Source of the DNA: a virus
Lineage: Duplodnaviria > Heunggongvirae > Uroviricota > Caudoviricetes
DNA length: 64,000 nucleotides
Virus record (IMG/VR): IMGVR_UViG_3300047462_000211
Strand: one strand, 5' to 3'
Shown here: positions 16,194 through 64,000 of the stretch, piece by piece
Numbering within the stretch: the stretch's first letter is position 1
Layout of the letters: each line of letters opens with the position of its first letter
Notes under the pieces: model-generated
The model's input: the letters and a program-made list of their open reading frames with translations, nothing else
Database searches by the model: none
Told to the model about the DNA's origin: nothing
Translations under genes and position numbers: made by a program

Positions 16194-16454
16194 ATGCGTA
16201 GTAAAATTTGGTTGTTTATTCTTGCGTTTGTTTTGATTGTTCTTTTCACAATCAGATGGACAATTGAATGGACAATTGAATGGACAATTGAATGGACACA
16301 AGATGAAGTTGGATATATTTTTCAAGCATGTCTTCCACATGCCGCTGTTCATGTTCCAGGATTCGTTGCGTTTTTGCTTTTATTTTTTACTGGTGGACAA
16401 TTTTTATGGGTTGATTTGTTCACTTGGATTTTTCGTTCCACTATCGGCAATTAA
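16194..16454 (+). CDS. Small membrane protein with WTIE x3 repeat encoded by a 12-bp tandem DNA repeat
   Basis: TAGGAGA Shine-Dalgarno. Hydrophobic N-terminal and C-terminal segments. Sequence RWTIEWTIEWTIEWTQ. Confidence 0.5.
   Translation: MRSKIWLFILAFVLIVLFTIRWTIEWTIEWTIEWTQDEVGYIFQACLPHAAVHVPGFVAFLLLFFTGGQFLWVDLFTWIFRSTIGN
16257..16299 (+). repeat. Tandem 12-bp repeat tggacaattgaa, 3 perfect copies plus a partial copy
   Basis: Read directly: atggacaattgaatggacaattgaatggacaattgaatggaca. Confidence 0.9.
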
Positions 16455-21212: not shown

Positions 21213-21990
21213 TCCTCTCATGCCGTAAAACCACGTCCTTTAGGGCGTGGGTCATTGGTATATTGTCGTTTTATGTGAAACAAATAAAAAGGATAGACCT
21301 GTTGGTGATGATGTAGTTGGTATTGACCTGGGATTAAAGGATTGGATAATCACAAGTGATGGTGAAATATTTAATTTACATCCTAATTTGTTAGAAAAAG
21401 AAGAAAAAGTAAAAAAAGAACAACGCCGTTTATCAAAAAAACAAAAAGGAAATAATAGAACTAAACAAAGAAAAAAATTACAACGTGCATACACCAAAGT
21501 AAGATATGCACGAAATGATAATGCACATAAGGCAAGTAGTTCGATAGCCAAGAATTATTCCTGTGTGGCAATAGAAGATTTAAATGTTCGAGGGATGATG
21601 AAAAATCACTGCTTGGCACGTCGAATTGCTCAAGTTAGTTGGGGTCAACTGAAATTATATTTGTCATATAAAACAAATGTCAAATTAGTTAACCGCTGGT
21701 ATCCGAGTAGCAAGACATGTAGCGAATGCGGAAATAAACAGGATATGCCTTTAAGAATTAGAACATACGAATGTATTAATTGCGGTATGATAATGGATAG
21801 AGATTTAAATGCCGCGATTAATATAAAAAATATTACCTTTGGAACGAAGGAAAATTACGCCTGTGGAGATATCAATTTCGGGGAAGATGATCATTTTCTA
21901 GATATGTGTCTATGAATCAGGAAAAATTTAAGACGGATATTGCTTGCGATATCTTTGGTCAAGAAGCCCCGTCCTTTAGGGCGGGGTAGT
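21213..21990 (+). mobile_element. Truncated IS200/IS605-family element (tnpB-only remnant) bounded by two near-identical GC-rich subterminal hairpins
   Basis: Hairpins ccacgtcc-ttta-gggcgtgg (21215-21234) and ccccgtcc-ttta-gggcgggg (21966-21985) flank a TnpB C-terminal-half ORF. Local GC content is far above the window average. Confidence 0.6.
21247..21915 (+). CDS. tnpB: TnpB (OrfB) fragment: RuvC-like nuclease split by a CxxC..CxxC zinc ribbon, lacking the N-terminal WED/REC half
   Basis: RuvC-I GIDLG, RuvC-II AIEDL, Zn ribbon CSECG...CINCG, RuvC-III DRDLNAAINI. Only 222 aa against about 400 aa for intact TnpB. Confidence 0.8.
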   Translation: MGHWYIVVLCETNKKDRPVGDDVVGIDLGLKDWIITSDGEIFNLHPNLLEKEEKVKKEQRRLSKKQKGNNRTKQRKKLQRAYTKVRYARNDNAHKASSSIAKNYSCVAIEDLNVRGMMKNHCLARRIAQVSWGQLKLYLSYKTNVKLVNRWYPSSKTCSECGNKQDMPLRIRTYECINCGMIMDRDLNAAINIKNITFGTKENYACGDINFGEDDHFLDMCL

Positions 21991-27496: not shown

Positions 27497-27723
27497 TAAT
27501 TATGTTAATTAAATCCAAAAAAATAAATTCTGGTTTGTATCAAATCGCAGTAAATACTCACATTTTTCAGGTTGAGAAATTTCCAGATGCAAGCTGGTAT
27601 GTATTTTTATTACTACCAAATGGTGCAAGGGAGTGGTATCAAGATTTTCACACGAAACGAGATGATGCTGTAAATTATATAATCAAATTGGATATATGTG
27701 TTGACAAATTAAAAGTTAGATAA
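27493..27723 (+). CDS. Hypothetical protein (76 aa)
   Basis: ORF track. 4-nt overlap with the upstream gene. Confidence 0.4.
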   Translation: MIIMLIKSKKINSGLYQIAVNTHIFQVEKFPDASWYVFLLLPNGAREWYQDFHTKRDDAVNYIIKLDICVDKLKVR

Positions 27724-27870
27724 TAACTTTTATATCTTGTCGCGATGCGTAGGGGCAAGAGTTCGAAGGTTATCGACGTTTGGGGCTAGAAAATGCTACA
27801 GTGTACGGAATCAGAACCCGTAGTTTGTTGGGGATGAAGTAGCCACTACCAACCAATTGAATAATGCTTA

Positions 27871-27899
27871 TTGACAAATTAATTGTTTTAATTTATTAA
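27871..27899 (+). promoter_or_regulatory. Sigma70-like promoter: TTGACA, 17-nt spacer, TATTAA
   Basis: TTGACA at 27871-76 and TATTAA at 27894-99, 9 nt before the ATG at 27908. Confidence 0.45.
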
Positions 27900-29622: not shown

Positions 29623-29967
29623 TTATGTTAATAATTTTGCTAACGTGCAATCTGATTGATTTTTGAAATAAAAATTATTTTTAACAATTAATTTATAAGG
29701 AAATTCTAATGGCATTGTTTCATAAGAAAATTTCCATTTTTTTTCATTAAAATTATTGTTGTTTGTGAAAAATTTTATTTCTAGTGGACAATAAAATTCA
29801 TAAAATCCTAATCCAAAAATATTATAATAAGTTTGAAAAATTTCTAAACCAAATAACTCACCGTATGATATAAATTGTTTTTCAAGTTTTATTATAACTG
29901 AATGGCAAAAAATATATTCATCTGTATGGCAAGTTGCATTTTCATATCTGTTTTCTTTTTTCATCAC
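29623..29967 (-). CDS. Small protein, member of the ..SDC(V/T)L.KLL C-terminal paralog family
   Basis: C-terminus FKNQSDCTLAKLLT resembles FENKSDCVLYKLLGGE of 38935..39120. Confidence 0.4.
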   Translation of the reverse strand: MMKKENRYENATCHTDEYIFCHSVIIKLEKQFISYGELFGLEIFQTYYNIFGLGFYEFYCPLEIKFFTNNNNFNEKKWKFSYETMPLEFPYKLIVKNNFYFKNQSDCTLAKLLT

Positions 29968-30623
29968 AATTTTCCAATAATTGTTGAAATTTTAGGTCTA
30001 TCTTCAAAAAGAGGATAAACCTGTGTTGGGTCAACGATAATCCATGATTTATCACCATTGCCTTCTGCAATGTTTTCAAAACAAACTCCATCATATCCTT
30101 TGTCTAAAAGCATGACATTCACGATTTCATTTTTCTTATCATATGTCAATTTTTTTATTTGCTGTTCTGAATATCCCGCTTCCAATAATATACCAACATA
30201 TTCTGGGTTTAACGCATTGATTTTCTTTGAAAAAAACGCAATATCTTTACTCATATATAATGGATTTGCAATATGTAAAAATGCAGGAATAATCATCGCA
30301 TGTTTGGGATAGATATCATATTCGTCATAAGTTCCCCAAGGATGTTCCCTGACAATTTTTAATTGGTCAGCGTGTTTGATATAATCTTCATGTAAATGTC
30401 TGTAGACAATTGAATCGGGGTCTCCAAACAACATACGCAATCTTTGATTTTCGGTTTCGTATGTTCCAAATTGCATCAAAATATGATAAGTTTTGTTTGG
30501 AATAATTGTTCCATGAAAAACGATTAAAGGATAACCATCTTTATCCAAAACTTTTGAATGACCTACCCATGACCAAAAGTTATAATCATTTTTTCTTATG
30601 TAGTAATTATCTTGGAATTTCAA
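29964..30623 (-). CDS. Hypothetical protein with HGT motif; possible H-Y-E-class ADP-ribosyltransferase / Tpt1-like fold
   Basis: PLIVFHGTIIPNK resembles the strand-1 HG(S/T) motif of DT/PARP/Tpt1-type ART folds. Speculative. Confidence 0.3.
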   Translation of the reverse strand: MKFQDNYYIRKNDYNFWSWVGHSKVLDKDGYPLIVFHGTIIPNKTYHILMQFGTYETENQRLRMLFGDPDSIVYRHLHEDYIKHADQLKIVREHPWGTYDEYDIYPKHAMIIPAFLHIANPLYMSKDIAFFSKKINALNPEYVGILLEAGYSEQQIKKLTYDKKNEIVNVMLLDKGYDGVCFENIAEGNGDKSWIIVDPTQVYPLFEDRPKISTIIGKL

Positions 30624-37100: not shown

Positions 37101-37399
37101 TATTTCAATTTCTCAATTTCTTCTGGTTCAGCAATCAATTTGATGAAAGTCACGAATTTTACCCATTCAGATTGTAAAGATGGATTTGCTTGTATCAAAG
37201 CAGTTAAATAATCATAATATTCAGCACTTTTTCTTTTAGATTCCCACATGTTTATTTGTCTACTCAACCTGTCTTCTGTTCGCATCAACAACGTTATTTT
37301 ATTCTCCATCAATTCAATTTGAGTATTTAATTCTTGAATTTTTCTCTTCAATAAAATATTTTCAGTTTCTTCAATGTTAATTTTTAATTCTTCTTGCAT
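37100..37399 (-). CDS. Small coiled-coil protein, paralog of 36876..37100
   Basis: See the paralog entry. Heptad-rich N-terminal half. Confidence 0.5.
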   Translation of the reverse strand: MQEELKINIEETENILLKRKIQELNTQIELMENKITLLMRTEDRLSRQINMWESKRKSAEYYDYLTALIQANPSLQSEWVKFVTFIKLIAEPEEIEKLK

Positions 37400-37457
37400 A
37401 AAAATATCGTATCAAAAAAATATATCAAGTTCAATATTATTATGTTATAATTATTTT

Positions 37458-38765
37458 ATGGCAACATTTAAATTACATACAGTATCGGCAACAACTGGTG
37501 ATAAAAAAATATTTTATTATGATAATGAATTTTCAACATTAGTAGATGAAAATGGCGAAAACATAATTAATCAAGAAAACAAAAAACAATTTAATGATTG
37601 GATTGCGATTAGTAAAGATAAACCAGGAATAAAAACATCACCAAAAATAATCAAAATACAAATGGGATTATCATGTAATTATTCCTGTTTCTATTGCAGC
37701 CAAAGATTTGTGCCACATGCAGAAGAAACAAATAAAAATAATATAGAAAAATTCATGAAAGATTTACCAAAATGGTTTTCAAGTAATGATGGAACAGATT
37801 GTTCAATCGAATTCTGGGGCGGTGAACCATTTGTATATTGGAAAACAATGCAACCATTAGCAGAAGAATTAAAACAAAAATACCCAAATGCAAAAATGTC
37901 AGTCATTACAAATGGTTCTCTTTTAGATACAGAAAAAAATATCTGGTTAGATGAAATGGATTTTGCAGTTGCAATCTCGCATGATGGACCAGGACAAATT
38001 ATTCGTGGACCAAATCCATTAGATGATGAAGAAAATAAAAAATCTATATTGGATTTATATAATAGATTAAGACCAAAAAATAAAATTACTATCAATGCCA
38101 TGGTTAATAAAAATAATATCAACAGAGAAGCAATACATGATTATTTAAAAGAATTTTTTGGTGAAGATGTGCCTATTGGTGAAGGTGGATTTATTGACCC
38201 TTATGATGAAGGCGGAATGCAATCTTGTTTTGAAACACAAGAAGAACATATCAACTATAGAAATAATTATTTGATTGAAATACGAAACGGTAAAGTTAAA
38301 AACTTCGTAAACATAATGCAAAAAATAAACGATTTCTATCATTCAATTTGTGATAATAGACCATCAAAATCGTTGGGTCAAAAATGTGGCATGGATAATC
38401 CAGAAAATATTTCTGTTGATTTAAAAGGCAATGTTTTAACATGCCAAAATGTTTCATCAGTTGCAAAAAGCATGAATGGAGAAAATCATAAAATTGGACA
38501 TGTAAATGATTTAGAAAATGTTAAATTAAATACCGCAACACATTTCTCAAATCGTAAAGAATGTTTGGATTGTCCCGTTCTACAATTATGCAAAGGTAGT
38601 TGTATGTTTCTCGAAAATGAATTCTGGGAAAAAGGATGCGATTCATCTTTTAGTGATAATATTCCATTATTCGCATCAGTTATTGAAGCAATTACTGGAT
38701 ATCTGCCTGTTTATATTGATGGACCACAAAGAGAAGAAAGAAAAAATATTTTTTGGAGTCTTTGA
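37458..38765 (+). CDS. Radical SAM enzyme with C-terminal SPASM-type cysteine cluster
   Basis: CNYSCFYC (Cx3Cx2C), GGEPFVYW and ITNGSLL motifs. C-terminal CGMDNPEN...TCQN...CLDCPVLQLCKGSC. First ATG in context at 37458. Confidence 0.8.
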   Translation: MATFKLHTVSATTGDKKIFYYDNEFSTLVDENGENIINQENKKQFNDWIAISKDKPGIKTSPKIIKIQMGLSCNYSCFYCSQRFVPHAEETNKNNIEKFMKDLPKWFSSNDGTDCSIEFWGGEPFVYWKTMQPLAEELKQKYPNAKMSVITNGSLLDTEKNIWLDEMDFAVAISHDGPGQIIRGPNPLDDEENKKSILDLYNRLRPKNKITINAMVNKNNINREAIHDYLKEFFGEDVPIGEGGFIDPYDEGGMQSCFETQEEHINYRNNYLIEIRNGKVKNFVNIMQKINDFYHSICDNRPSKSLGQKCGMDNPENISVDLKGNVLTCQNVSSVAKSMNGENHKIGHVNDLENVKLNTATHFSNRKECLDCPVLQLCKGSCMFLENEFWEKGCDSSFSDNIPLFASVIEAITGYLPVYIDGPQREERKNIFWSL

Positions 38766-44950: not shown

Positions 44951-45484
44951 TTATATAAAATTAGTTAAATCTTGTCTTTCGTATTCATTATATTCCAAAG
45001 ATTTAAGTATTTTTTCAAGGGGAATTGCATATCCTTCTGTATCCCAACATTTATTTTTTATTATATTTTTTGAATATTTTTGAGTTTTTATTAAATTATT
45101 GATTATTAGACAAAGTTTATTTACATCATAAAAAATATATAAAATTTTATTTTTTGTAAAATAATTACCAAATAATACATGTTCATTGATTATTTGTCCC
45201 TCTTGTACAGTGCGGTATGGACCACCTATTTTTTCTCTTTGTACATCACTAAAAGTTTCAACAAACATATTTTTTGTGTCATCGTAATTTTCAGATTTCA
45301 TTTCTAAATAACAAATATCATTTCCAAAATTTACTATATAATCTATACCTTTAATTTGTTTATTTTTTCTTGCGTTTGAAAATATAGTGTTTGTTTTCAT
45401 CCAAGCATTAACAGCTTCATCTGCGTAATGATTTCCAAAATTCAAATCATTTTTAAAATTAATTTCTCCATTTATCATTTTCAT
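44951..45484 (-). CDS. PD-(D/E)XK-family nuclease candidate (177 aa), co-transcribed immediately downstream of a Dam-like MTase
   Basis: E..(ADEAV) ... GIDYIV ... 13 aa ... YLEMK gives the E / D / ExK arrangement. Start overlaps the MTase stop by 26 nt. Confidence 0.45.
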   Translation of the reverse strand: MKMINGEINFKNDLNFGNHYADEAVNAWMKTNTIFSNARKNKQIKGIDYIVNFGNDICYLEMKSENYDDTKNMFVETFSDVQREKIGGPYRTVQEGQIINEHVLFGNYFTKNKILYIFYDVNKLCLIINNLIKTQKYSKNIIKNKCWDTEGYAIPLEKILKSLEYNEYERQDLTNFI

Positions 45485-46205
45485 ATATTCCCATTACTTC
45501 AGTATCTCCCTGTTTTGCACCATTTACTCTCATTTTTCTTGATGAAACCGCACTAATGTTTTGTTTTTTAAAATTATATTCTCTGTCAAAAAGTATAATG
45601 GTTTTTGCTATTTTTTTAATTTCGTTTATATAATCCCAGTAAATAGTATAATCAAAAATAGTATTATATGATGCTTGAGAATTTTGATATGGTGGGTCAA
45701 TTACTATAGTTTTGCCAATTAAAAATTCTTTTGGTATATCAATATAAGATAAATTTAAACATTTTGGTGATAATTCGGTCCAACGTACCAAGGCTAAATC
45801 ATACTCTGGTTTAACATTTATATTTTTTAAATTAAAATCTTTTTTCATTGGAACATTAAATCCATTTTTGGAATATCTAAAAACCCCAGAAAAACTCATT
45901 TTTTGTAAACAATATATATATTTCCACCATTCAATATCTTTTCGATATTTCATGTAATCTTCTTTGGTAAATGTTTCAAGAACAATTAATTTGTCAAAAT
46001 TTGCCATAATTTTGTAAACAATTGAATCGATATCGTTCAAAATTGCGGTTTTTGCTAAATTTGCTGAAATTACAGAAGAACCACAAAAAAGTTCAACAAA
46101 ATTTTCATTTTTAAATTCTTGTAAATCCTTTATCCAATAAGCTTTTGAGCCTACATAAGACGGTAAAAATTTTATTAAATTTGTTTTCAAACTATTATTT
46201 CTCAA
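45459..46205 (-). CDS. N6-adenine DNA methyltransferase, D12/Dam-like class
   Basis: N-terminal YVGSKAYW, FCGSSVIS (AdoMet motif I-like), catalytic DPPYQN. Confidence 0.75.
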   Translation of the reverse strand: MRNNSLKTNLIKFLPSYVGSKAYWIKDLQEFKNENFVELFCGSSVISANLAKTAILNDIDSIVYKIMANFDKLIVLETFTKEDYMKYRKDIEWWKYIYCLQKMSFSGVFRYSKNGFNVPMKKDFNLKNINVKPEYDLALVRWTELSPKCLNLSYIDIPKEFLIGKTIVIDPPYQNSQASYNTIFDYTIYWDYINEIKKIAKTIILFDREYNFKKQNISAVSSRKMRVNGAKQGDTEVMGIYENDKWRN

Positions 46206-47396: not shown

Positions 47397-47705
47397 TTAA
47401 ATCAAACAAAGTTTAAATAATGTTGCATCATTTTTTGATTTGAATGCAAATTCTTTTTCATTAAATACCCAATCTTCATTACAATTTTCTTGGCACCAAT
47501 GAATTAAATTATTTAGTTCTAAAAATTTAAAACATCTATGGATAACAGTATATCCAAAAGTTTCGTCAATTATTTTTACATATTTTGGATAAAAACAGGA
47601 AATTTCTGTTTGCTCTATGTTACGTTTTCTTGGTGGCATAGATAAACAACTGTAAAGTATATCAATTTTTAAAAAATATTCAGAAATACTATCACCAAAA
47701 CTCAT
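47397..47705 (-). CDS. Small WC..NC-motif protein (102 aa), paralog family member
   Basis: IHWCQENCNEDWVF....FKSKNDATLFKL. Confidence 0.5.
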   Translation of the reverse strand: MSFGDSISEYFLKIDILYSCLSMPPRKRNIEQTEISCFYPKYVKIIDETFGYTVIHRCFKFLELNNLIHWCQENCNEDWVFNEKEFAFKSKNDATLFKLCLI

Positions 47706-47784
47706 GAAATTATTTAGCGATTATAATTTATTGATTTTGATTATCTTTAATTTTATATTGAAGAATAAATTTTGGAAGCCAAAA

Positions 47785-49185
47785 ATGAAACCATATCAAG
47801 TTGTTGAAAAATTAGAAAAAACTCCTGGCAAAAAAGATAAAGAACAAATTCTTATTGAAGCATTTATGAGCAACAACCATGAATTTTTTATTGGTGCACA
47901 ATATGCGTTAGATAATTTGATTTCATTTGGTGTTAAACAAGTCGCACTAATTGATGATTCAGATTTAAATCCAGAAAATCCTGGAACTGTAAGTTTTGAT
48001 GATTTCATTGATTTATTGAAAAAATTATCAGCAAGAAAATTAACTGGTCATGCAGCAAGAGATGCTATTAATGAAATGGCATCTAATTGTCATGGTCCAA
48101 CATGGAATTCATTTTATCGAAGAGTTTTATTAAAGAATTTGCGATGTGGTGTTGATACATCAATCAATAAAGTTTTGGAAAAATTAAAAGCATATCCAGA
48201 AGCAGAAGAATTAAAAATCCCAGTATTTTCTTGCCAATTAGCAAGCGATGGTTCCAAACCACCACATAATAAGAAATTAAAATCGACTATGTATCTGCAA
48301 TTAAAAATAGATGGGTCAAGATTGCTGACCTTTCTTAATAAAGAAGATGGAACGGTTAAACAATATTCTCGTGTTGGTCATTTAAATGAAAATTTCTCAC
48401 ATATTACGGAACCTCTTAAAAAATTACTTCCTCATTTAAAAGAATCTGTTGTTTTTGATGGTGAAATAGTTGGTAAATCTTTTCAGGAATTGATGAAATC
48501 ATTTAGTAGAAAAACAGAAACAACCAATGATTCAAAACTTGCTTTATTTGATATGATTCCAATGAATGATTTCAAAAAAGGATATTGTGCATTATCACAA
48601 GAAAAACGACATTGGTTATTATCTGAATTTCAAACGTCTGGTTTGTTTACAAAATACACAAACGGTTTGGTTTATGTTTTGCCAGAAAAAATTGTAGATT
48701 TTGATACTGATGATGGACAAGAAGAATTCAAAAAATTTGTTAATTATGCTGCATCTTTACGTGTTAATGACCCAACAATTGAGGGTGTTATGGTCAAAGA
48801 TATGAAAGCACCCTATGAAGGTAAACGTGTTGATAAATGGTTAAAAATCAAACCGTTTGTTTCAGTATCTTTGACAGTAATGTCTGTAGAATTAGGTGAC
48901 AAAGATGGCAAATATAAAAATGTTATTGGAAATATCATTTGTGAAGGCATTGATGATGGTGTGAAAATAAAAGTTTCTGTAAGCAGTGGCATTACAGATG
49001 ATTTGCGTAAAGAATGGTTGGTTAAACCGCCTATTGGTTTTATTGTTGAAATTGAAGGTGATGCTTTTACATTAGATGAAGCGGCTATCAAAGAAGCAGA
49101 ATATACAGGAAATGACCCTGTTTATTCAATTCGTTTTCCAAGATACAAGGGACAAAGAGGATTTAAGGCTGGACAAAAAATTTGA
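47785..49185 (+). CDS. ATP-dependent DNA ligase
   Basis: Motif I LQLKIDGSR (KxDG), III VVFDGEIV, IV EGVMVKD, V DKWLKIK. The track start 47704 would overlap the divergent gene; the in-context ATG is at 47785. Confidence 0.85.
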   Translation: MKPYQVVEKLEKTPGKKDKEQILIEAFMSNNHEFFIGAQYALDNLISFGVKQVALIDDSDLNPENPGTVSFDDFIDLLKKLSARKLTGHAARDAINEMASNCHGPTWNSFYRRVLLKNLRCGVDTSINKVLEKLKAYPEAEELKIPVFSCQLASDGSKPPHNKKLKSTMYLQLKIDGSRLLTFLNKEDGTVKQYSRVGHLNENFSHITEPLKKLLPHLKESVVFDGEIVGKSFQELMKSFSRKTETTNDSKLALFDMIPMNDFKKGYCALSQEKRHWLLSEFQTSGLFTKYTNGLVYVLPEKIVDFDTDDGQEEFKKFVNYAASLRVNDPTIEGVMVKDMKAPYEGKRVDKWLKIKPFVSVSLTVMSVELGDKDGKYKNVIGNIICEGIDDGVKIKVSVSSGITDDLRKEWLVKPPIGFIVEIEGDAFTLDEAAIKEAEYTGNDPVYSIRFPRYKGQRGFKAGQKI

Positions 49186-49210
49186 GAATTAAGAATTTAT
49201 TAGCCTAAAA

Positions 49211-49250
49211 GGCTCCAACGAGGTGTTCAAGACCTCGTTGGAGCCAAATT
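49211..49250. terminator. Strong hairpin terminator: 14-bp perfect stem ggctccaacgaggt/acctcgttggagcc, loop gttcaag, A/T flanks
   Basis: Read directly, just after the ligase stop. Flanked by AAAA 5' and AAATTT 3', so potentially bidirectional. Confidence 0.8.
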
Positions 49251-49381
49251 TAGGTCGCGGTGCAAAGTCTATCCCTCGGCACTGCGGTGAAAGCTGAGCC
49301 TATTAAGCCCTGCCTGTCGTTTTCCAACGATAAAAGTAATATAGACGCTATTTTTATTATGTCAATAAGAAAAAATGCACT

Positions 49382-49509
49382 GAAACGAAAAGTAAACCAT
49401 GACTTGAAAACCCGCCAAGTCTCGCTGTTACACGATTTACTACGTGGGAAACGAAAAGTAAACCATGACATCATTGGTCTCATAGTGAATTGCCCAGATG
49501 ATTTACTAC
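49382..49509. CRISPR. Candidate orphan mini-CRISPR array: 66-bp period, full 36-nt repeat GATTTACTACGTGGGAAACGAAAAGTAAACCATGAC flanked by two exactly 30-nt variable segments and degenerate terminal repeats
   Basis: gaaacgaaaagtaaaccatgac occurs at 49382 and 49448. gatttactac occurs at 49434 and 49500. Intervening segments are 30 nt each and unrelated to one another. The repeat contains an internal TTTACT/AGTAAA palindrome. AT-rich leader-like sequence lies upstream. The alternative reading is iterons or a protein-binding-site array. Confidence 0.4.
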
Positions 49510-50504
49510 CAGTAATTTGTGATAATTAAATGCCTAACATCTTGATTATTTCTGTTTTTAAAATTCACACTGTATTTCTTATCAAATGATTTTATATTAA
49601 ATCCAGTATATAGTTTACTTATGTTTGGTGTTTCTTTCACAACTGCCATGAATTTTGCTGGTGTTATAGTCAACAAATCTGCCAATTCTATTTGTTTATT
49701 GAAATCAAAATCTTCTTCTTTATTATATTGAGAAAATTCGCTGTCATATGGCGGGTCAATAAAAATAAAATCGTATTTTGTAAAATTATTATATTTTGAA
49801 AAAAATCTTTTGAAATCCATGCAATTAAATTCTGTATTATTATAAAAACTTCTTTCTGATAAATCTAACATATTATAGAATTTACTTCGCATTCTCTTTT
49901 TATTATATGAAATACCACCATATGGAACATTGAAATTTCCATTTTTGCAAAATCTAAACATTCCAGAATAAGACAATTCTCGCATAATAAAAAAGTAAGC
50001 ACTATCAGCACAAGGTGCTTTATTATAAAATTCTCGATATGCATAATATAAAGCGGCATGCATTGCTGTTTTTATAAACAAAAAATATTCTTCATCGGTT
50101 ATTTTTTTATTATTTTTTAGTTCTATTTTTTGAATTAATTTATTTTTACTATCTATTTCTCTTTGAAAATATTTTATATAAGCTGGATGAGTGCAAATAG
50201 TTTTATTTTTCTCGAAAATATTATGCCCAATGTTCAAATCCAATTCATCAATAGCATCAGAAATATCATCAAAATCTTTTAAATCCTCATAAATTAACCA
50301 AAAATTATCGTTTATATCTACATAAAATTTCATTAATTCATTATTCAAATCATTTACGATGCTTTTTTCATGTTCAAGATGAAAATATAAAGCACCGCCG
50401 CCAAGAAATGGTTCAACATATCTATCAAAATTTTTTGGCATGTTTTCAAGAATTACTGGTATTTCAGAAGTTTTTCCACCAGTCCATTTAATAATGTTTT
50501 TCAC
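49506..50504 (-). CDS. N6-adenine DNA methyltransferase, D12/Dam-like class
   Basis: KWTGGKTSEIP...YVEPFLGGGALYF (motif I), DPPYDSEF (motif IV). Confidence 0.8.
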   Translation of the reverse strand: MKNIIKWTGGKTSEIPVILENMPKNFDRYVEPFLGGGALYFHLEHEKSIVNDLNNELMKFYVDINDNFWLIYEDLKDFDDISDAIDELDLNIGHNIFEKNKTICTHPAYIKYFQREIDSKNKLIQKIELKNNKKITDEEYFLFIKTAMHAALYYAYREFYNKAPCADSAYFFIMRELSYSGMFRFCKNGNFNVPYGGISYNKKRMRSKFYNMLDLSERSFYNNTEFNCMDFKRFFSKYNNFTKYDFIFIDPPYDSEFSQYNKEEDFDFNKQIELADLLTITPAKFMAVVKETPNISKLYTGFNIKSFDKKYSVNFKNRNNQDVRHLIITNYW

Positions 50505-50506
50505 AT

Positions 50507-51234
50507 CTATTCCTTAATAAAAATATTTTTTATTGAATTCTTTTTGTATTCTATCTTCTGCGCTATTTTGAAATATTTTTCATCTTTTTCTATACCAATA
50601 AATTTTCTATTTTCTAAAACACACGCAACCCCAGTTGTTCCGCTGCCCATTGTATTGTCTAAAACCACATCATCTATATCGGAATATGTTTTTAAATATC
50701 TCATCAAATCTATTGGTTTTTGTGTTGGATGCAATCCACATTGTGAAGAGTGTTTAGGAAAATTTAATATAGTTTTTGGATATTTCATTCCAGAAGTATC
50801 ATCAGCTACTCTTTTATTAATTAAACGAGTTTCGGAAAAATTTTCTTTTGCATTTTTACCTTGAATATGATTTGGTTTTCCAGAAATCATTTGTGGATTA
50901 TATTTTGTTTGTTTTTTACCAAAAACAATAATATCTTCATGTTGTTTTAATGGTTGTTTTTTTGCATTTGCAAAATTGGCAGCATTTTCTTTATTCCAAA
51001 TCCAAGAACATCGAAACATTTCAAGATTTGATGATACTAACATGGACGTAAATGGTTGAGATTTTTATATTCGAACCATAATTTGTCCATAGGAATTATT
51101 TTATCAAATTCGGCATAAGTAGTACCGTAAGGCAAATCTGCTAAAATTAAATCAACATTTTTGTCTGAAATTTTTTTCATTATATTAAGACAATCACCCA
51201 AATATAATTCATATTTTTCTTTAATTGAAACCAT
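50507..51234 (-). pseudogene. Beta-class N4/N6 DNA methyltransferase split by a -1 frameshift (51037..51234 N-terminal part with DLPYG; 50507..51043 C-terminal part with TMGSGTTGVA)
   Basis: N-terminal ORF has LILADLPYGTTY (motif IV first). C-terminal ORF has CSWIWNKEN and VLDNTMGSGTTGVACV (motif I). The two frames overlap near an A5 run at about 51040-51060. Confidence 0.6.
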
Positions 51235-52555: not shown

Positions 52556-53683
52556 TTGTTATTATATTCATCAGATAAATCACAGATATTAACGGTAAAT
52601 AATTTTACAACGGATAATTCAACATCATTAACTTTTATAGGTTATGGTTATGTAAATCCAGAAAATCCTTCTGGTGAAATTTTAAATCAAAATCTTCTTT
52701 ATTTGCTTCAAAATTTTTCATCTGGAAATGCACCTATTAATCCTCTTATTGGACAAACATGGTTTAATGATTCAACTAATATTTTTAATGTATATAATAA
52801 TTCCGGTTGGGATGGATTAATTTCAGAATCTAATATATCAAGCACACAATATGTAAATACAAATATTGAAACACAAAGCGATATTTTGTCTGATAATTTC
52901 GCAAATCTATCATTTTTAAATTCACAAAATTATGAACGAGAAATAAATTTAAATTATATTACATTGTCTCAAATATATGGTTATGCAACAACATCTTATC
53001 TTAATACAAGTATAACAAATTTTCTTAATAATTTTGTTTTAACATCATCTCTTAGTAGTACATTTGTCACAAGTTCTCAGTTATCTGGTTATAATTATTT
53101 AAATCAAAACACTTTAACATCTTTAAATTTAGCAACAGAAAATCAATTATCAAATCTTTTAACACAAAATCAAACAATTACATTTTCTGGAGATATTACT
53201 GGTTCTGGCACAAACAGCATTAATTCTAATTTGTCTACAATAACAAGTGCAGGAACTTATGAAAATATTGCAGTAAATGTAAAAGGGTTAATTGTTTCTA
53301 ATGTTGGTTTGAATGAAACAATAATTTCTAACGCTCTTGGTTTTACTCCACTTGGATTAAGTAATATTTCTGATTCAATATTAACAAATTCAGGTTATCA
53401 AAAATTACCATCTGGATTAATTATTCAATGGATTCAAAGCAATGTGGACCCGGCAGATAATACAGAAACAACGCAAACATTACCATGGGCATTAGCATTT
53501 CCAAATTCATTTTTGGGTGCAACTGTTTCAACAAATATTCAAACATCATCATCCAATGCGGATTTATGGTATCAAATATCAGAAAGTCAAACAAATAGCT
53601 CACAGGTAGTTATAAATAGACATAATGATTCTTCATCTAACAATACAACTACGTCTGCATTCATTATAGGCTTTGGATATTAA
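52556..53683 (+). CDS. Tail fibre protein paralog (375 aa)
   Basis: Same N-terminal (LLYLLQNFSSGNAPINPLIGQTWFN) and C-terminal (GYQKLPSGLIIQW...FIIGFGY) modules, different centre. Confidence 0.8.
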   Translation: MLLYSSDKSQILTVNNFTTDNSTSLTFIGYGYVNPENPSGEILNQNLLYLLQNFSSGNAPINPLIGQTWFNDSTNIFNVYNNSGWDGLISESNISSTQYVNTNIETQSDILSDNFANLSFLNSQNYEREINLNYITLSQIYGYATTSYLNTSITNFLNNFVLTSSLSSTFVTSSQLSGYNYLNQNTLTSLNLATENQLSNLLTQNQTITFSGDITGSGTNSINSNLSTITSAGTYENIAVNVKGLIVSNVGLNETIISNALGFTPLGLSNISDSILTNSGYQKLPSGLIIQWIQSNVDPADNTETTQTLPWALAFPNSFLGATVSTNIQTSSSNADLWYQISESQTNSSQVVINRHNDSSSNNTTTSAFIIGFGY

Positions 53684-53684
53684 A

Positions 53685-54869
53685 ATGACGGTTTTTACAA
53701 TTAAAAATTCAGATGGTTCTGTTTTAACAACAATTTCTAACTTAAGTGTCGATAATACAACATCATTATCTTTACCAGGATATGGCTATCCATCATGGGC
53801 AGAAACTTTTAATCAAAATTTTGTTTATTTACTTCAAAATTTTTCATCATCTGGTGCTCCAAATAATCCAACCCAAGGACAATTATGGTATAATAATTCA
53901 ACAAATAATTTACAAGTTTATACATTATCTTCTGGAACATATAGCTGGCAAATTTTAGCTACAGAAAATTGGTTGGCAACTGAAGGATATTTAACACAAA
54001 GCGATGTTGCTAATTTTGCAACTATACAATGGGTTGAACAACAAAATTATGTTACACAAAGCTATGTTCTTGGTCAAAATTATGTTACTGCATCATATGT
54101 GGCTGGACAAAATTTTGTTACTCAAAGCTATTTAACTTCACAAAATTATATAAATCAAGCAGCTTTGAATAACGCTTTAACACAAGCAACTAATTCATTA
54201 TCAACATCTTATGTTACAGAATCCTATTTTGTTGCTCAAAATTATATAACACAAACCTATCTTGCTTCACAAAATTTTGTAACGGCTTCTTATGTAGCTG
54301 CACAAAATTATGCGCCTGCTACAGCCCTTGCTGGCTATCTTACAGCCAATCAAACAATAACGGTGTCTGGTGATGCATCTGGTTCTGGAAGCACTTCTAT
54401 CGCTCTTACATTGGCTTCTACTGGCGTATCTGCTGGCACATATTCAAAAGTTGTTGTGAATGCAAAGGGATTGGTTACCGCTGGTTCTTCATTAGTATCT
54501 GTTGATGTTACTGCTGCATTGGGTTTTACTCCATTATCATTAACAAATTTTGGTGCATCAATTGGAACAAATGGTTATCAAATTTTACCATCTGGATTAA
54601 TTATTCAATGGGTTACTGGTAACTCAGACCCAGCAGATAATACAACACCAACACAAATTTTAAATTGGGCGTTGACATTTCCAAATGGTTTAATTGGAGC
54701 ATCGGTATCAACTTATATTGCCACATCAGCAAACGATGATACTTGGTATCAAGTTATAAGTTCTGGTTCTAATTCATCACAAGTCATTGTTCAAAGACAA
54801 GCTGGACAAGGAGTTGGAGCAACATTTAATTCAACAACCAAACCATTCATTATTGGTATTGGTAATTAA
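53685..54869 (+). CDS. Tail fibre protein paralog (394 aa)
   Basis: N-terminal FVYLLQNFSSSGAPNNPTQGQLWYN. Central Q(S/N)Y(V/L)TQSY 9-10-aa repeats. C-terminal GYQILPSGLIIQW...FIIGIGN. Start is 1 nt after the previous stop. Confidence 0.8.
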   Translation: MTVFTIKNSDGSVLTTISNLSVDNTTSLSLPGYGYPSWAETFNQNFVYLLQNFSSSGAPNNPTQGQLWYNNSTNNLQVYTLSSGTYSWQILATENWLATEGYLTQSDVANFATIQWVEQQNYVTQSYVLGQNYVTASYVAGQNFVTQSYLTSQNYINQAALNNALTQATNSLSTSYVTESYFVAQNYITQTYLASQNFVTASYVAAQNYAPATALAGYLTANQTITVSGDASGSGSTSIALTLASTGVSAGTYSKVVVNAKGLVTAGSSLVSVDVTAALGFTPLSLTNFGASIGTNGYQILPSGLIIQWVTGNSDPADNTTPTQILNWALTFPNGLIGASVSTYIATSANDDTWYQVISSGSNSSQVIVQRQAGQGVGATFNSTTKPFIIGIGN

Positions 54870-59290: not shown

Positions 59291-61186
59291 ATGGAGTTAT
59301 TTACCATAATAAATACTCATATAATATTTAGGTTTTTTAATTTGTCTGGTTCTACATCACCATCCGTAAATGCCGCACGAGCTACAGGAATATATCCAGG
59401 GCAAGGAATTTTCAATGTTTCTAATTCAACAAGCGCTAGGGGTGGTTTGTTAGATGCGAGACAAAGTTTTGTAGGTATAATCAATAATATTTTGTCACAG
59501 ACTCCAGTCGTTTTAGATAGAGCATCTGGTGTAACTACATTAGCACGAAGTCAAACAATTTCTCAAAATTTAATATGGTATAGAATTGATAATTCTTATG
59601 GAATTGAATATCCTTTACCATATCAATATATTAGCGGAAATAATCAATATTATAAAGTTTTCAATTCAACAGAAAGAAATAATTTATTTTTAAATCCAGA
59701 AATTATTTCAGCAATAAAAAATAATATCACAATTAAAGTATTTGTTGATACCACAAATTCAAATTATCCTGCATGGTCTATTTGGCAAATAAACAATTCT
59801 ATTGCAAATGAATATATTAATGCCGCAAACGGAATTAATGTTCAAAGTGTTTTGATGGAACAAGCCGATAAAATATTTTTTATTGCACAAGCATATAACA
59901 CAACATCAGATAATTATTTCGATATGCTTTCTTTATCAAATCTTACCGATAAAGAATATATATATGTTGATGCTGATGAAACCGCCGATGGTTTTTGGTC
60001 AATATATCAATATAACGATATAAATTCTCAAACATATACGACCTTTTCTTTATCAAATACTTTTTCTACATATGCTTCTATGTTAGCAGCAACATCGTTG
60101 ACAAATGGAGAATATTTGTATGTATTAAATGATGAAACTATTGTTCCAAGTTTATATTCAGCAAATACATCTGCTTATTTTTGGTCAATATATCAATATT
60201 TTACCGATACAAATTCTTTTGTTTATGTAACGTCAAAATTTGTTATTTTACAAACACAAGCATATAGAACAACTGATTTTTATAATCAAACTGATTGGTA
60301 TGCTCAAAATATTACTATATCAAATATCGTTAATTCATATTCAGCAAATAATTATCCAATGATAAAATATGTTTCTGAATCTGCTAGAAATTTAGCAGAA
60401 GGACCAAATCCAACAAATATTTTTGTTGAAATAAATGATGGCGTTAATCCATGGTATTGGCAAGCATATGATTCAACATCTGCCTCTTGGATTACAGTAG
60501 CATTGGAAAATGGTACAATAGAATTAAGTTCAGAATTTTATAATCCTTCAAATGTGGTTTTCAATCCAGCACAACCAATCGTTTCAAATGTTGCAATTAG
60601 AGATGGCTCTTGGGAAATTCGTGTTTTAGCAGATATTTTATTTTATGAAAAATTATTAGAAAATATTGAAATAAATGAAACATTTTTTAGTATTTTACAT
60701 TTCATTCATGTTCAACAAACCAATATAGATTGGGCTTTCAAAACAAATTTTATGACCGTTGCTGGTTATCAAATTCCACTTATTCAATCAGGTTTTGAAA
60801 CAACAGATATTTCATCAAGTCTTACATCTTATATCGAAGAAGTAAAACCATATAGAGTAAAAATTAGAAATTTTGAAAATCAATATTCGCCAGATATTGA
60901 CCAAGTAAATGCAGATGTAACAGATTTTGATAAACCTGTTTATTATGACCCAACATTAAAAGCATATAGAAGATTAGACCCAAATAATGCAACAGATTTA
61001 TCGATTATAGAATCACAATTTCCAGATTGGTATAATGAATACGAAACATATTTAAATGCTATTACAAATAATCAAACTCCAATGTTACAATTCTATTTGA
61101 TAGAGTTACAGGATATGAAACAGAATTTAGTGGAGCATTTGGTAAAAATTATGACAAATATGATTCATATGATGGAACTGCATTAG
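59291..61186 (+). CDS. N/S/T-rich fibre-like protein (631 aa). Its authentic frame most likely shifts -1 near 61075-61110 into the downstream open frame
   Basis: Last ~35 aa (..LQDMKQNLVEHLVKIMTNMIHMMELH) look non-proteinaceous, whereas the -1 frame opened at 61072 reads GYETEFSGAFGKNYDKYDSYDGTALDRILKFYEPQTG. Confidence 0.55.
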   Translation: MELFTIINTHIIFRFFNLSGSTSPSVNAARATGIYPGQGIFNVSNSTSARGGLLDARQSFVGIINNILSQTPVVLDRASGVTTLARSQTISQNLIWYRIDNSYGIEYPLPYQYISGNNQYYKVFNSTERNNLFLNPEIISAIKNNITIKVFVDTTNSNYPAWSIWQINNSIANEYINAANGINVQSVLMEQADKIFFIAQAYNTTSDNYFDMLSLSNLTDKEYIYVDADETADGFWSIYQYNDINSQTYTTFSLSNTFSTYASMLAATSLTNGEYLYVLNDETIVPSLYSANTSAYFWSIYQYFTDTNSFVYVTSKFVILQTQAYRTTDFYNQTDWYAQNITISNIVNSYSANNYPMIKYVSESARNLAEGPNPTNIFVEINDGVNPWYWQAYDSTSASWITVALENGTIELSSEFYNPSNVVFNPAQPIVSNVAIRDGSWEIRVLADILFYEKLLENIEINETFFSILHFIHVQQTNIDWAFKTNFMTVAGYQIPLIQSGFETTDISSSLTSYIEEVKPYRVKIRNFENQYSPDIDQVNADVTDFDKPVYYDPTLKAYRRLDPNNATDLSIIESQFPDWYNEYETYLNAITNNQTPMLQFYLIELQDMKQNLVEHLVKIMTNMIHMMELH

Positions 61187-64000
61187 ATAGAATTTTAAAA
61201 TTCTATGAACCGCAAACTGGTATGCCTGAAGCAGACCCAAAAACATTAATGAATTTGAATTTTAAAGGCACAAATACCGATGGTGGATTAATGACACAAT
61301 TCACCACAGCCGCATCAGATTTTGATAATACAGAAACAGGGTTCGATACAGTTGGTTTTGATACACAAGTCAACTCTGGTTTAAATCAAATTGTGGATGG
61401 AGGAACGCTTCCAGGACCATCTACAGAGGCTTATCAACTTAATGCTATCTCAACGTCAGACCCATTAGGATATGGCTTGAGAGACCCTTATGTGTCTTCA
61501 CAACACCCAGAAGAAAGAATACCCGTTATTTGTGATGATGTTTTAAATTTAAAAATAACATCAAACTCACTTCCTGGTGCAGCACCACAAACAACAAAAT
61601 ATTTCGATGTAAGTTCTTATACAGAAAACACAGTAACTTTATTTCATGGCGCATTTGCACCAAATTCAGAATCAATTTTGGTATGGCGTGATGGAATTAG
61701 ATTAACTGTTGACGAATATAACATTGATTTTTTTGGTAGAACAGTAACACCATCATTAATTAATTCAGATACTTCAAAAGCATCTTCAATTGTTGTTAAA
61801 ATATTTGGTATTGGCGGTTCAGATGCAATTATAGAAACAGATTATTTTGCTGGAAATAACACAAATACTTTGAATATCTCAACACCCAATGTGCAACAAC
61901 AACAATTATTGGTTTCAATTAATGGATTTTTATATCCATCAACATCGTTGAGTATTGTCAACGAAACAATCACTTTACCAGTCGTTATTGAACCTTCAGA
62001 TGATGTTGCAGTATATGTTTTTGAAACAAATTCAACAACATATTCAAATTTGGTTAATCAACAAAATCTTATCTACAATTCACAACAAACATGGACACTA
62101 AATTATCCAGATACACAAACAATTCCAGCACATGCAGGAACTATTGTTGAAGTAAACGGATTAAGATTATTACCACCATTAACATATTATGGAACATTTG
62201 ATATTTTAATTAAATATTTGAATTTTGATGTTTCTATTCAATCAGGAACTACTATTCAAGTTTTCGTCAATCAAGTATTTTATCCATATCAAATTCCAAC
62301 GGTTACCGCTGGTTCAAGCAACCTTCCTTTTGGTGTTGTCGTTCCAAACGGTCAAATGCCAAATAACAGCAATGGCATGTTTGCTATATATGGACAACAA
62401 TTGATTTCATTAGACCCTAATTTTACAGCAAATGAAGTATGTTTAGTTATTCATCAAGATAATGATTTTGAAATATCTGATGGAACATTAACCATTTCAA
62501 AATCATTACAATCAACTGATAATATTTTTGTTACTACATTTTCCAACGCTTCTATTATGGGAATCAAAACACATACTTACTTGGCTGATTCATCTGGTGA
62601 ATATTTAATGTATTCACCATTTGGCAATGATTATACTTGGGCAACAATTGATGGAAAAATACTTGTTGGTGGAAAAGATTATTCATTTACAAAAGTAGTG
62701 AATTCTTACCCCATAACTGGTTTTGGACCCGCTGGAGAAAATATCAATTTAATCACAAGCAACAAAAGTAATTTAACTTTTGCAAAAAGTTTAAATTTAA
62801 TTTCTAATGAATGGCTTGTTGTTACTGTATTTACAGTAGAACCATTGAGAGAAAAAATTTCTTGGATTGCAACAACAAACACACCAGCAGCACAAAGAAT
62901 GGTTCCAGTTCCAGATAGAGGTGGTTTTGGTTTGATGCCTTTTGGTATTGTCGGTTTTGATGAAAAAGTTGATTGGCAATTAACAATTTCAAATTATGAA
63001 ATATCTTACGATGTTTTTGATAGTCCAGTTTCTACTCCAGTTTATAAAATGAATAATTCTTGGGAATATTTGAGAGCCGATAATCTTTACAGCGGAATAT
63101 TACTTAATCAATTAAATCTAAACGATACAGAAATTACTATTTCTTTGTATGATGCAAATGTATCGCCAAAACTTGCACCAACAAATCCATTTTATGTTCC
63201 AGAAATTCCACCATATTCATTTGTACAAAATTTTACATTTGATGGTAATACAATTGTATACACAGTTAATCAAGTTGGTGATTTTATTTCTGTTATAATT
63301 TCTGGAAACGAAATAAATTCATCTCTTTATATAGTAGAAAAAACATTCACTTCTACAACGATTATTTTAACAGAAATTATTCCATCATTAGGGGATGAAA
63401 TTACAATTACTATATCAAAACCAAAAATATCTCAAATTCCAGGTGTTGTGTTTATTCATGGTGAACGAATTGAATATTGGGATATCGAAACAAATGGTTC
63501 AACTGTTGTTCTAAGCAACATCAGAAGAGCAACAAGAGGAACATCTTCTTGTAGTGAACAAAGATATGTATCTTCATTTATGGCAAATACTGTTGGACCA
63601 TATGTTTTTGATTATGTTGGTAATTTAGATATCTACAAATCAACATCAACTACAACTGATTTTGTTGGTGATGGATTAACAGAAACATTTAACGTTTATA
63701 ATACAATATCTGAATCTCTTTCTGGATTATCAGTGACAGTAAACGGAACATTGGTATCAAATTATGTAGTTGCAAATAATGTAGATAATATATCAATTAC
63801 TTTCAATTCTGCACCGGCATTAAATGCAAATATTGTTGTAACAACAAATTATAATATTTGGTTAATTGAAAATATAGATTTTACTCAAACAATTTCAAGC
63901 AATTCCACATCAATAACATTTAATTCTGTTTCAGATTGTGAAATTGTTATTGGTTTTGCATTAGGAAATTATGTTCCAGTAGGAACCATTGTAAGAAATG
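61072..64000 (+). CDS. Long open frame (at least 975 codons, runs off the window end) encoding an N/S/T-rich fibre-like protein. No in-context ATG at its start, so a probable continuation of 59291..61186 via frameshift
   Basis: Manually translated frame (61072 mod 3 = 1) is open to the window end and has tail-fibre-like composition. The only listed ORF in the region (62797..62979 -) is spurious. Confidence 0.6.

Follow-up and report, generated by a model that had tools for sequence, protein, structure and literature searches.

We propose that a short cassette in the genome of a tailed phage is a CRISPR mini-array with two spacers. The window that we analysed is 64,000 nt of this genome (IMG/VR record IMGVR_UViG_3300047462_000211, one strand), and the cassette occupies 128 bp of it (49382-49509). 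It consists of one full and two partial copies of a 36-nt repeat, separated by two segments of 30 nt, and it lies beside a predicted small RNA (sRNA) gene in an accessory insert that would encode RNA only. In our judgement a CRISPR-derived mini-array, in an RNA-only insert with an independent sRNA gene, is the best explanation, and we hold it tentatively, with somewhat less than even confidence. It is the geometry that makes a CRISPR identity plausible: repeats of 36 nt with spacers of 30 nt are canonical for type II, VI-B, and VI-D arrays. We regard the element as a well-defined candidate that is cheap to test, and not as a discovery.

The cassette is laid out as R1, spacer 1, R2, spacer 2, and R3. 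In a repeat search of the window, GAAACGAAAAGTAAACCATGAC occurs in two exact copies (49382-49403 and 49448-49469) and, in register with it, so does GATTTACTAC (49434-49443 and 49500-49509); both pairs have a start-to-start period of 66 bp. R2 (49434-49469) is the sole full repeat of 36 nt, GATTTACTACGTGGGAAACGAAAAGTAAACCATGAC, which can be written as GATTTACTAC-GTGG-GAAACGAAAAGTAAACCATGAC. R1 (49382-49403) has only the 3' 22 nt of the repeat (GTCATGGTTTACTTTTCGTTTC in the minus sense), and R3 (49500-49509) has only the 5' 10 nt. The initial annotation had described an orphan mini-CRISPR-like array with these perfect copies at this period, with an internal palindrome (TTTACT...AGTAAA), and with one full repeat between two degenerate ones. 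The copies, the period, the palindrome, and the full repeat are all as it said, but the end repeats are truncated, not degenerate. Where R1 lacks 14 nt and R3 lacks 26 nt, similarity to R2 is at the random level.

Spacer 1 (49404-49433, TTGAAAACCCGCCAAGTCTCGCTGTTACAC, 50% GC) and spacer 2 (49470-49499, ATCATTGGTCTCATAGTGAATTGCCCAGAT, 43% GC) are exactly 30 nt each and, as had been claimed, unrelated: by manual count they are identical at 9 of 30 positions, which is what random sequences would give. There is no third copy of the 22-mer in the window, even if up to 3 mismatches are allowed, and none of 100 dinucleotide shuffles contained two matches to it. Since the variable parts show no residual similarity, the pattern did not come from duplication followed by drift. 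Unrelated 30-mers between perfectly conserved blocks are hard to obtain in that way, so a CRISPR-type origin is the most natural reading. The cassette has the generic geometry of CRISPR arrays (repeats of 23-55 nt with uniform, unique spacers), at the minimum possible number of units.

The genomic setting suggests that the cassette was acquired as part of a larger insert. The window is AT-rich (30.6% GC) and encodes tail-fibre proteins, a GTA-TIM tail protein, an ATP-dependent ligase, and three DNA methyltransferases. The phage is very distant from sequenced phages; an identical sequence of the same phage is present in a Logan assembly. Samples with this phage are ERR9963787 and the one that yielded the 89,465-bp JGI/ENA contig. 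As the initial annotation noted, the element is downstream of the DNA ligase (47704-49185, plus strand), and on its other side lies a Dam-class methyltransferase (49506-50504, minus strand), so that the flanking genes converge on it. The insert runs from the stop codon of the ligase to that of the methyltransferase (49186-49509, ~324 bp), and its GC content is ~43%, as compared to 30.6% for the window. The GC content of the window peaks in an 80-nt island (0.56; mean 0.306, standard deviation 0.068) inside this 320-bp intergenic stretch. The cassette makes up the right-hand third of the insert; the larger sRNA-bearing insert around it had been missed.

We compared this site to the corresponding site in four relatives, whose ligases are 61-70% identical, and the region is absent from these homologous phages. 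One relative (L004/L037) has three small open reading frames (ORFs) between the ligase and the methyltransferase; in another (L040) the two genes abut, and the methyltransferase is 51% identical; a third (L006) has other content at the site and no methyltransferase there; and none of these three has the insert. The contig of the fourth (L005) stops at the ligase. The sequence 3' of R3 is methyltransferase coding sequence that is conserved in L004 and L040, and R3 itself overlaps the stop codon (49506-49508). The methyltransferase ends in NY-stop in the relatives and in NYW-stop here, and the sequences diverge exactly at the start of the 10-mer. Because the stretch is in none of the four relatives, and because of where the sequences diverge, we conclude that the ~324 bp are an insertion in a variable hotspot and that the third repeat was cut by the insertion junction: its cut point coincides exactly with the junction to the methyltransferase coding sequence.

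The content of this hotspot differs among the relatives, and it sits amid three DNA methyltransferase genes that cluster around the ligase (45459-46205, 49506-50504, and 50507-51043), so the setting is an anti-restriction neighbourhood. The GC content of the spacers (43-50%) and of the insert is far above the 30.6% of the phage, which fits a foreign origin and argues against the spacers having been taken from close relatives of this phage. We also note that the N6_N4 methyltransferase seems to be split into a 65-amino-acid N-terminal ORF (51037-51234, with a DLPYG motif) and a 178-amino-acid ORF (50507-51043), which suggests a frameshift or a split gene. An 89-amino-acid ORF across the cassette (P0125, 49260-49529) has been annotated as a gene in NCBI, on a separate 322-bp contig. 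This contig could reflect an assembly break at the repeats or heterogeneity within the phage population in the presence or absence of the insert.

The rest of the insert appears to be an sRNA gene. The initial annotation had proposed an AT-rich, leader-like sequence upstream of the array. Instead, 49336-49381 holds a strong minus-strand promoter that points away from the cassette, and this stretch is not an obvious leader. The promoter is of the sigma-70 type (TTGACA-16-TATATT, 11/12; 49365-49338) and would drive the sRNA. There are seven TTGACA-N16-18-TAnnnT sites in the 64 kb, and three of the others are directly upstream of genes (24398 on the plus strand; 36879 and 44943 on the minus strand), so the phage appears to use this type of promoter. 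Downstream of the promoter, ~80 nt of GC-rich sequence folds as three hairpins. The minus strand gives the sRNA body a better fold (z = -1.9) than the plus strand does (z = -0.6), and the helix GGGCUU/AGGCUC requires G-U pairs that only the minus strand can form. At 49206-49249 there is a terminator hairpin with a 14-bp stem (GGCUCCAACGAGGU...ACCUCGUUGGAGCC) that is followed by UUUU on the minus strand only; our terminator scan did not call it because it has four U rather than five.

From the promoter, the minus-strand fold, and the hairpin with its UUUU, we infer a structured, GC-rich sRNA of ~130 nt that is transcribed on the minus strand from 49331 to ~49203. Its promoter and terminator signals are evident, and its ends are placed from them. 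The predicted layout is a 5' hairpin (UCGUU-GGAA-AACGA), two more hairpins, and then the terminator. The sRNA did not match any Rfam family at E ≤ 10, and target prediction with RNAduplex gave only long, G-U-rich, spurious duplexes. We considered an additional degenerate repeat (R0) at 49322-49346 and rejected it, as its similarity (AACG--AAAAGTAA) is not significant (p = 0.09-0.24). The cassette is directly upstream of the sRNA promoter and, in the minus sense, directly downstream of the methyltransferase operon.

If the cassette is a mini-array, then it would have arrived in the phage within the relatively GC-rich, RNA-only insert and would form, on the minus strand, the 3' end of the transcript of the methyltransferase operon. 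This operon has its own extended -10 promoter (51296-51267), the cassette begins at the operon's stop codon, and there is no terminator between them, which is why we favour transcription in this direction. The minus sense also has a U-run after the last repeat stub, and it places at least 22 nt of repeat after each spacer. This arrangement of a 30-nt spacer followed by repeat would suit tracrRNA-dependent (trans-activating CRISPR RNA, type II-like) maturation or another maturation that leaves a 3' handle. In type II systems, 22 nt is the length of the repeat-derived part of the mature CRISPR RNA of Cas9. Despite the truncated ends, both guides could then mature with a tracrRNA from the host, which would need to complement GUCAUGGUUUACUUUUCGUUUC. 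The other orientations and processing schemes that we considered (a Cas6-type 8-nt handle, or a 5' handle of the Cas12a or Cas13a type) would serve only one of the two spacers, which is suggestive. The guides would work with host Cas proteins, either directing them against competitors or host genes or occupying the effector as decoys.

An extension of this proposal, to which we give only a small chance, is that the insert is a self-contained, RNA-only module for counter-defence or competition, with two Cas9-type guide units and a companion sRNA, that jams or reprograms an RNA-guided nuclease of the host. Each unit would consist of a 30-nt guide and a 22-nt repeat stub for pairing with the tracrRNA, and the units would be expressed at the far end of the methyltransferase operon. 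The sRNA would sequester the effector or act as a divergent cofactor similar to a tracrRNA or scoutRNA, and the CRISPR repeat family of the host would not yet be in the databases.

Returning to the mini-array itself, a number of results weigh against it. There are only three copies of the repeat, and two of them are partial. R2 folds equally weakly on both strands (~-6.3 kcal/mol, with z of ~-2.4 to -2.5), with a stem of GGUUUACU/AGUAAAUC on the minus strand and CGUGG/CCAUG on the plus strand, each with a G-U pair, so its structure does not decide the strand. We found no dedicated promoter that reads into the array from either side. The sRNA does not provide a significant anti-repeat: the predicted duplexes of the repeat with the sRNA (-16.3 kcal/mol for the minus strand and -13.7 kcal/mol for the plus strand, by RNAduplex) are not significant against a background of -10 ± 3.5 kcal/mol. 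Local alignments of the repeat and the sRNA are not significant either (p = 0.1-0.25), and this includes a match of 8-11 bp between UCGUUUCC and GGAAAACGA. Elsewhere in the window, the best non-self duplexes with the repeat (-25 kcal/mol) are in large ORFs at ~22.4 kb and 10.2 kb and are at the chance level for ~8,500 tiles. As neither the sRNA nor the rest of the window has a significant anti-repeat, the sRNA is not a tracrRNA by the defining criterion, and we reject that identity.

We did not find a cognate repeat. Our scans of genome, viral, and metagenome collections used exact patterns only. The 22-mer had no exact match in IMG/VR, in JGI metagenome contigs, or in 185,579 GTDB species genomes (one genome per species). 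A pattern of two repeat stems had ten matches in the species genomes, all of which were either unrelated tandem repeats of long perfect palindromes or chance. A pattern with the spacer flanks and a pattern with a stem plus flank had no match in IMG/VR, and the latter had a single match in the metagenome contigs, by chance and inside a gene. In Rfam, including its CRISPR-DR families and tracrRNA, nothing matched the repeat at E ≤ 10, and strings of the repeat sequence did not match published papers. We set aside a likeness to type VI-A repeats such as those of Leptotrichia Cas13a (GATTTA..CTAC, AAACGAA), since the diagnostic 3' GACTAAAAC is absent. Separately, several of the matches to the two-stem pattern were in metagenome-assembled genomes of Saprospiraceae and Bacteroidia (L007, 7-2040; L014, 5428-6640; L011; and L012), which contain long tandem arrays with a period of 58-70 bp. 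The repeat unit of these arrays is a perfect palindrome (GTTTACTAAAC...GTTTAGTAAAC). The segments between the palindromes are conserved, so they are not CRISPR arrays; they were retrieved only because they share the TTTACT/AGTAAA stems with our repeat.

There was also no sign of a protospacer. A blastn search of the cassette against 50,697 phage records and 72,556 plasmid records gave chance matches only. The central 16-mers of the two spacers occur 12 and 7 times in IMG/VR, and these matches extend to at most 23 of 30 positions. Neither the window nor ~45 kb of sequence from related phages (partial genomes of the relatives) contained a match to a spacer. The host gives little guidance: matches to the ligase, the methyltransferase, TnpB, and the tail protein are at most 48% identical and are scattered over many taxa, so that no host was assigned, and the closest relatives of the tail protein (30% identity) belong to phages of Alphaproteobacteria, which says little about the host of this phage.

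Scans of the 54 ORFs in the window with Pfam and PADLOC did not identify any intact cas gene; ~25 kb of the ~89-kb source contig lie outside the window. The initial annotation had stated that no cas gene was visible. This is correct for intact genes, but there is a TnpB/Cas12f-like ORF of 222 amino acids (21247-21915). It is truncated, with OrfB_IS605 and TNB as its sole remaining domains. On either side of it is a copy, in direct orientation, of a GC-rich palindromic hairpin (AAACCACGTCCTTTAGGGCGTGG at 21228 and AAGCCCCGTCCTTTAGGGCGGGG at 21964), and 21228-21986 looks like a decayed element of the IS200/IS605 family inside the phage. We rejected a link between this ORF and the cassette, as the ORF is 28 kb away, is truncated, and has its own hairpin repeats.

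Because our searches were mostly for exact matches, and because no host was assigned, the negative results weaken the CRISPR reading without refuting it. The repeat-spacer architecture of the initial annotation and its 36/30 geometry are real and non-random; the matches that it expected, of the repeat to a host CRISPR locus and of the spacers to competing phages or plasmids, did not appear.

The repeats could instead be binding sites for a protein, as operator or activator sites of the sRNA promoter or as iteron-like or recombination sites, with TTTACT and AGTAAA as half-sites and a spacing of 66 bp, or about six helical turns. The initial annotation had offered iterons or transcription factor sites as its alternative; we retain protein-binding repeats upstream of the sRNA promoter as a rival, and we consider it unlikely. 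R1 is 17 bp upstream of the -35 box and is centred at about -60, where class I activators bind, and R2 is 66 bp further upstream. The palindromic half-sites are placed symmetrically, and no CRISPR corroboration was found. But such sites occur nowhere else in the 64 kb with up to 3 mismatches, which would be unusual for a phage regulator, and there are just two copies, with no adjacent gene for a replication initiator, an integrase, or a DNA-binding protein that is specific to the module. (Relatives without the module have the small neighbouring ORFs too.) Perfect conservation over 32 nt, sharp edges, and GC-rich intervals of exactly 30 nt also go beyond what binding sites normally need. Somewhat less likely still, the cassette might be an RNA element that is unrelated to CRISPR: two tandem 66-nt modules, in the 3' untranslated region of the methyltransferase operon or in a precursor of the sRNA, whose arms (AGUAAAUC...GGUUUACU) close variable loops. 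It might serve as a signal for processing or stability, as a decoy, or as a sponge. The cassette is probably in the methyltransferase mRNA, as it begins at the stop codon and no terminator precedes it; pairing of the conserved blocks is possible within a repeat or over a variable segment; and the insert is GC-rich, like structured RNAs in AT-rich genomes. On the other hand, the whole cassette folds no better than shuffled sequences (z = -0.7 on the minus strand and -1.2 on the plus strand), its two variable segments fold differently and have no common structure, and it has no match to an Rfam family.

Another possibility, which we consider improbable, is that illegitimate recombination captured a piece of a bacterial CRISPR locus, or of other repetitive DNA, along with a useful sRNA gene, and that the cassette is an inert relic of it. 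Such a relic would account for end repeats that are both cut, one of them exactly at the insertion junction, for the lack of a promoter of its own, and for our failure to find a cas gene, an anti-repeat, or targets, and the 322-bp contig with its 89-amino-acid ORF hints at population heterogeneity or an assembly break. Yet the repeat blocks are still perfectly identical, and what survives after each spacer in the minus sense (at least 22 nt) is what the maturation of guides would need. Finally, we think it very improbable that the cassette is part of a small protein-coding gene with 22-residue repeats. There are two candidates, a minus-strand ORF of 77 amino acids (49250-49483, with SWFTFRF twice), which ends 1 nt before the terminator hairpin, and a plus-strand ORF of 89 or 56 amino acids (with KRKVNHD twice). 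Since 66 is a multiple of 3, neither is interrupted within the cassette, and reading frames that stay open on both strands are a sign of composition, not of coding. The public contig has no called gene at this place, and the candidate starts are not preceded by a Shine-Dalgarno-like sequence. Among 1.84 billion representatives, the sole phmmer match was a spurious, satellite-like repeat protein, and a word-indexed search found only the ORF itself, so these ORFs have no real protein homologues, which supports the CRISPR reading. Also, protein repeats do not evolve with perfect nucleotide identity beside random sequence. (A synthetic peptide query derived from the repeat, for CRISPR arrays that are miscalled as ORFs, had no match, but it also missed P0125, the positive control, so this search was uninformative.)

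We noticed several other features of the window. A second stretch that is GC-rich (up to 0.53) and non-coding lies at 27700-27880 on the plus strand, with a TTGACAAATTAA promoter-like box on either side. Another phage sRNA may be encoded here; Rfam gave no match, and the fold is no better than those of shuffles (z = -0.5). A radical-SAM ORF (37374-38765) matches models of prokaryotic viperins (pVip, E = 3e-17), and a defence-type gene of this kind is unusual in a phage. An ORF at 29964-30623 has an ART-PolyVal domain, and there are Macro, DarG-like, and Csx1-like matches somewhere among the 54 ORFs; these could be domains of polyvalent proteins or of anti-defence. Two in-frame arrays of a 33-nt unit with ~3 copies each lie at 54041-54312, within the third tail-fibre gene (53673-54869), and a perfect in-frame tandem repeat (12 nt, 3.6 copies) lies inside a gene at 16256-16298. 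An ORF of over 976 amino acids (61074-64000, plus strand) is cut off by the right end of the window; its sequence has much S, T, and N, and it resembles a tail or baseplate protein. As the source contig measures 89,465 bp, ~25 kb of phage sequence lie beyond the window.

Among known systems that the mini-array might resemble, we begin with those that do not involve CRISPR guides. Iterons are direct repeats of 17-22 bp, in three or more copies, at or near an origin, and their cognate initiator is usually encoded nearby. Like iterons or phage operator arrays, our cassette has direct repeats of ~20 bp at a helical-multiple spacing in non-coding DNA beside a promoter. It differs from them in having two copies of the 22-mer, no associated gene for an initiator or a repressor, no further sites in the genome, and GC-rich intervals of equal length, so it does not qualify as a set of iterons. 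The RNAs of type III toxin-antitoxin systems (ToxI-like) are contiguous tandem repeats of ~36 nt immediately upstream of the gene for a toxin endoribonuclease. We rejected this identity since the 36-nt repeats here are separated by unique 30-nt segments and are not followed by a toxin ORF; an sRNA and a terminator come next. Genes for tracrRNAs or scoutRNAs, in type II and type V systems, are similar to our sRNA gene in that a structured RNA of ~130 nt with its own promoter and intrinsic terminator lies beside a repeat-spacer array. The sRNA departs from them in that the anti-repeat is missing (its best duplex with the repeat is within 2 standard deviations of the background) and no Rfam tracrRNA matches it.

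Solitary mini-arrays in viruses were reportedly described by Medvedeva et al. and by Faure et al. in 2019. If ours is a working mini-array, then it would join these known viral mini-arrays, and the short list of viruses that borrow the CRISPR machinery of their hosts would gain a tailed-phage lineage remote from all sequenced phages. Its sRNA companion would be unusual: the array would travel with a dedicated sRNA gene, in a 324-bp RNA-only insert inside an anti-restriction cluster. If the repeats are protein-binding sites or a relic, then the finding is an ordinary one. Virus-borne mini-arrays with 1-2 spacers are documented, as are phage RNAs that mimic components of CRISPR systems (PMC11656645, PMC10651486, 10.64898/2026.06.01.729453). 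In known mini-arrays, the repeats are identical to those of the host's CRISPR and the spacers mostly match related viruses (PMC11656645). As in those arrays, there are 1-2 spacers here that are flanked by repeats, in an accessory region of a viral genome, with no adjacent cas genes, and the partial end repeat resembles the definition of a mini-array as a full plus a partial repeat that is used in SRUFinder (PMC10651486). Our cassette is unlike them in that we found no matching repeat or protospacer, in the truncation of both of its end repeats, and in the lack of a promoter or leader that reads into the array.

The other documented relatives are phage RNAs that imitate CRISPR components. RNA anti-CRISPRs (Racrs) are single repeats behind a promoter that match a repeat family of the host, and they are proposed to occupy Cas proteins (PMC10651486). 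Our cassette would also give rise to a repeat-derived RNA that is encoded by a phage without cas genes, but it has spacers, the sole strong promoter points away from it, and it has no cognate repeat family that we could find, so it is not a Racr. Viral single-guide RNAs (vsgRNAs) and viral small CRISPR-Cas-associated RNAs (vscaRNAs) are compact phage RNAs that direct Cas9 and are found in anti-defence islands (10.64898/2026.06.01.729453). They are defined by a guide to the promoter of the host's cas9 and a repeat part that is complementary to the host's tracrRNA, and they are usually near acr or aca genes (10.64898/2026.06.01.729453). We rejected the idea that the sRNA is itself a vsgRNA, as there is no guide 5' of the first hairpin at the predicted start, and this hairpin is unrelated to the repeat; nor does the sRNA have a repeat/anti-repeat stem that is related to the cassette. 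The guides in our cassette are full length (30 nt), while those of the vscaRNA system are truncated to 11-14 nt, and we did not identify any acr or aca genes. The likeness is in the geometry of the unit. A vscaRNA is a guide and then the portion of the repeat that pairs with the tracrRNA (Feussner et al. 2026 preprint, 10.64898/2026.06.01.729453), and in the minus sense our cassette has a 30-nt segment and then at least 22 nt of repeat, in a phage without cas genes, in an anti-defence neighbourhood, and alongside a compact, structured RNA that runs from a promoter to a terminator. If the CRISPR reading is correct, this would link the cassette to the recently described phage RNA mimics of CRISPR components (Racrs, vsgRNAs, and vscaRNAs).

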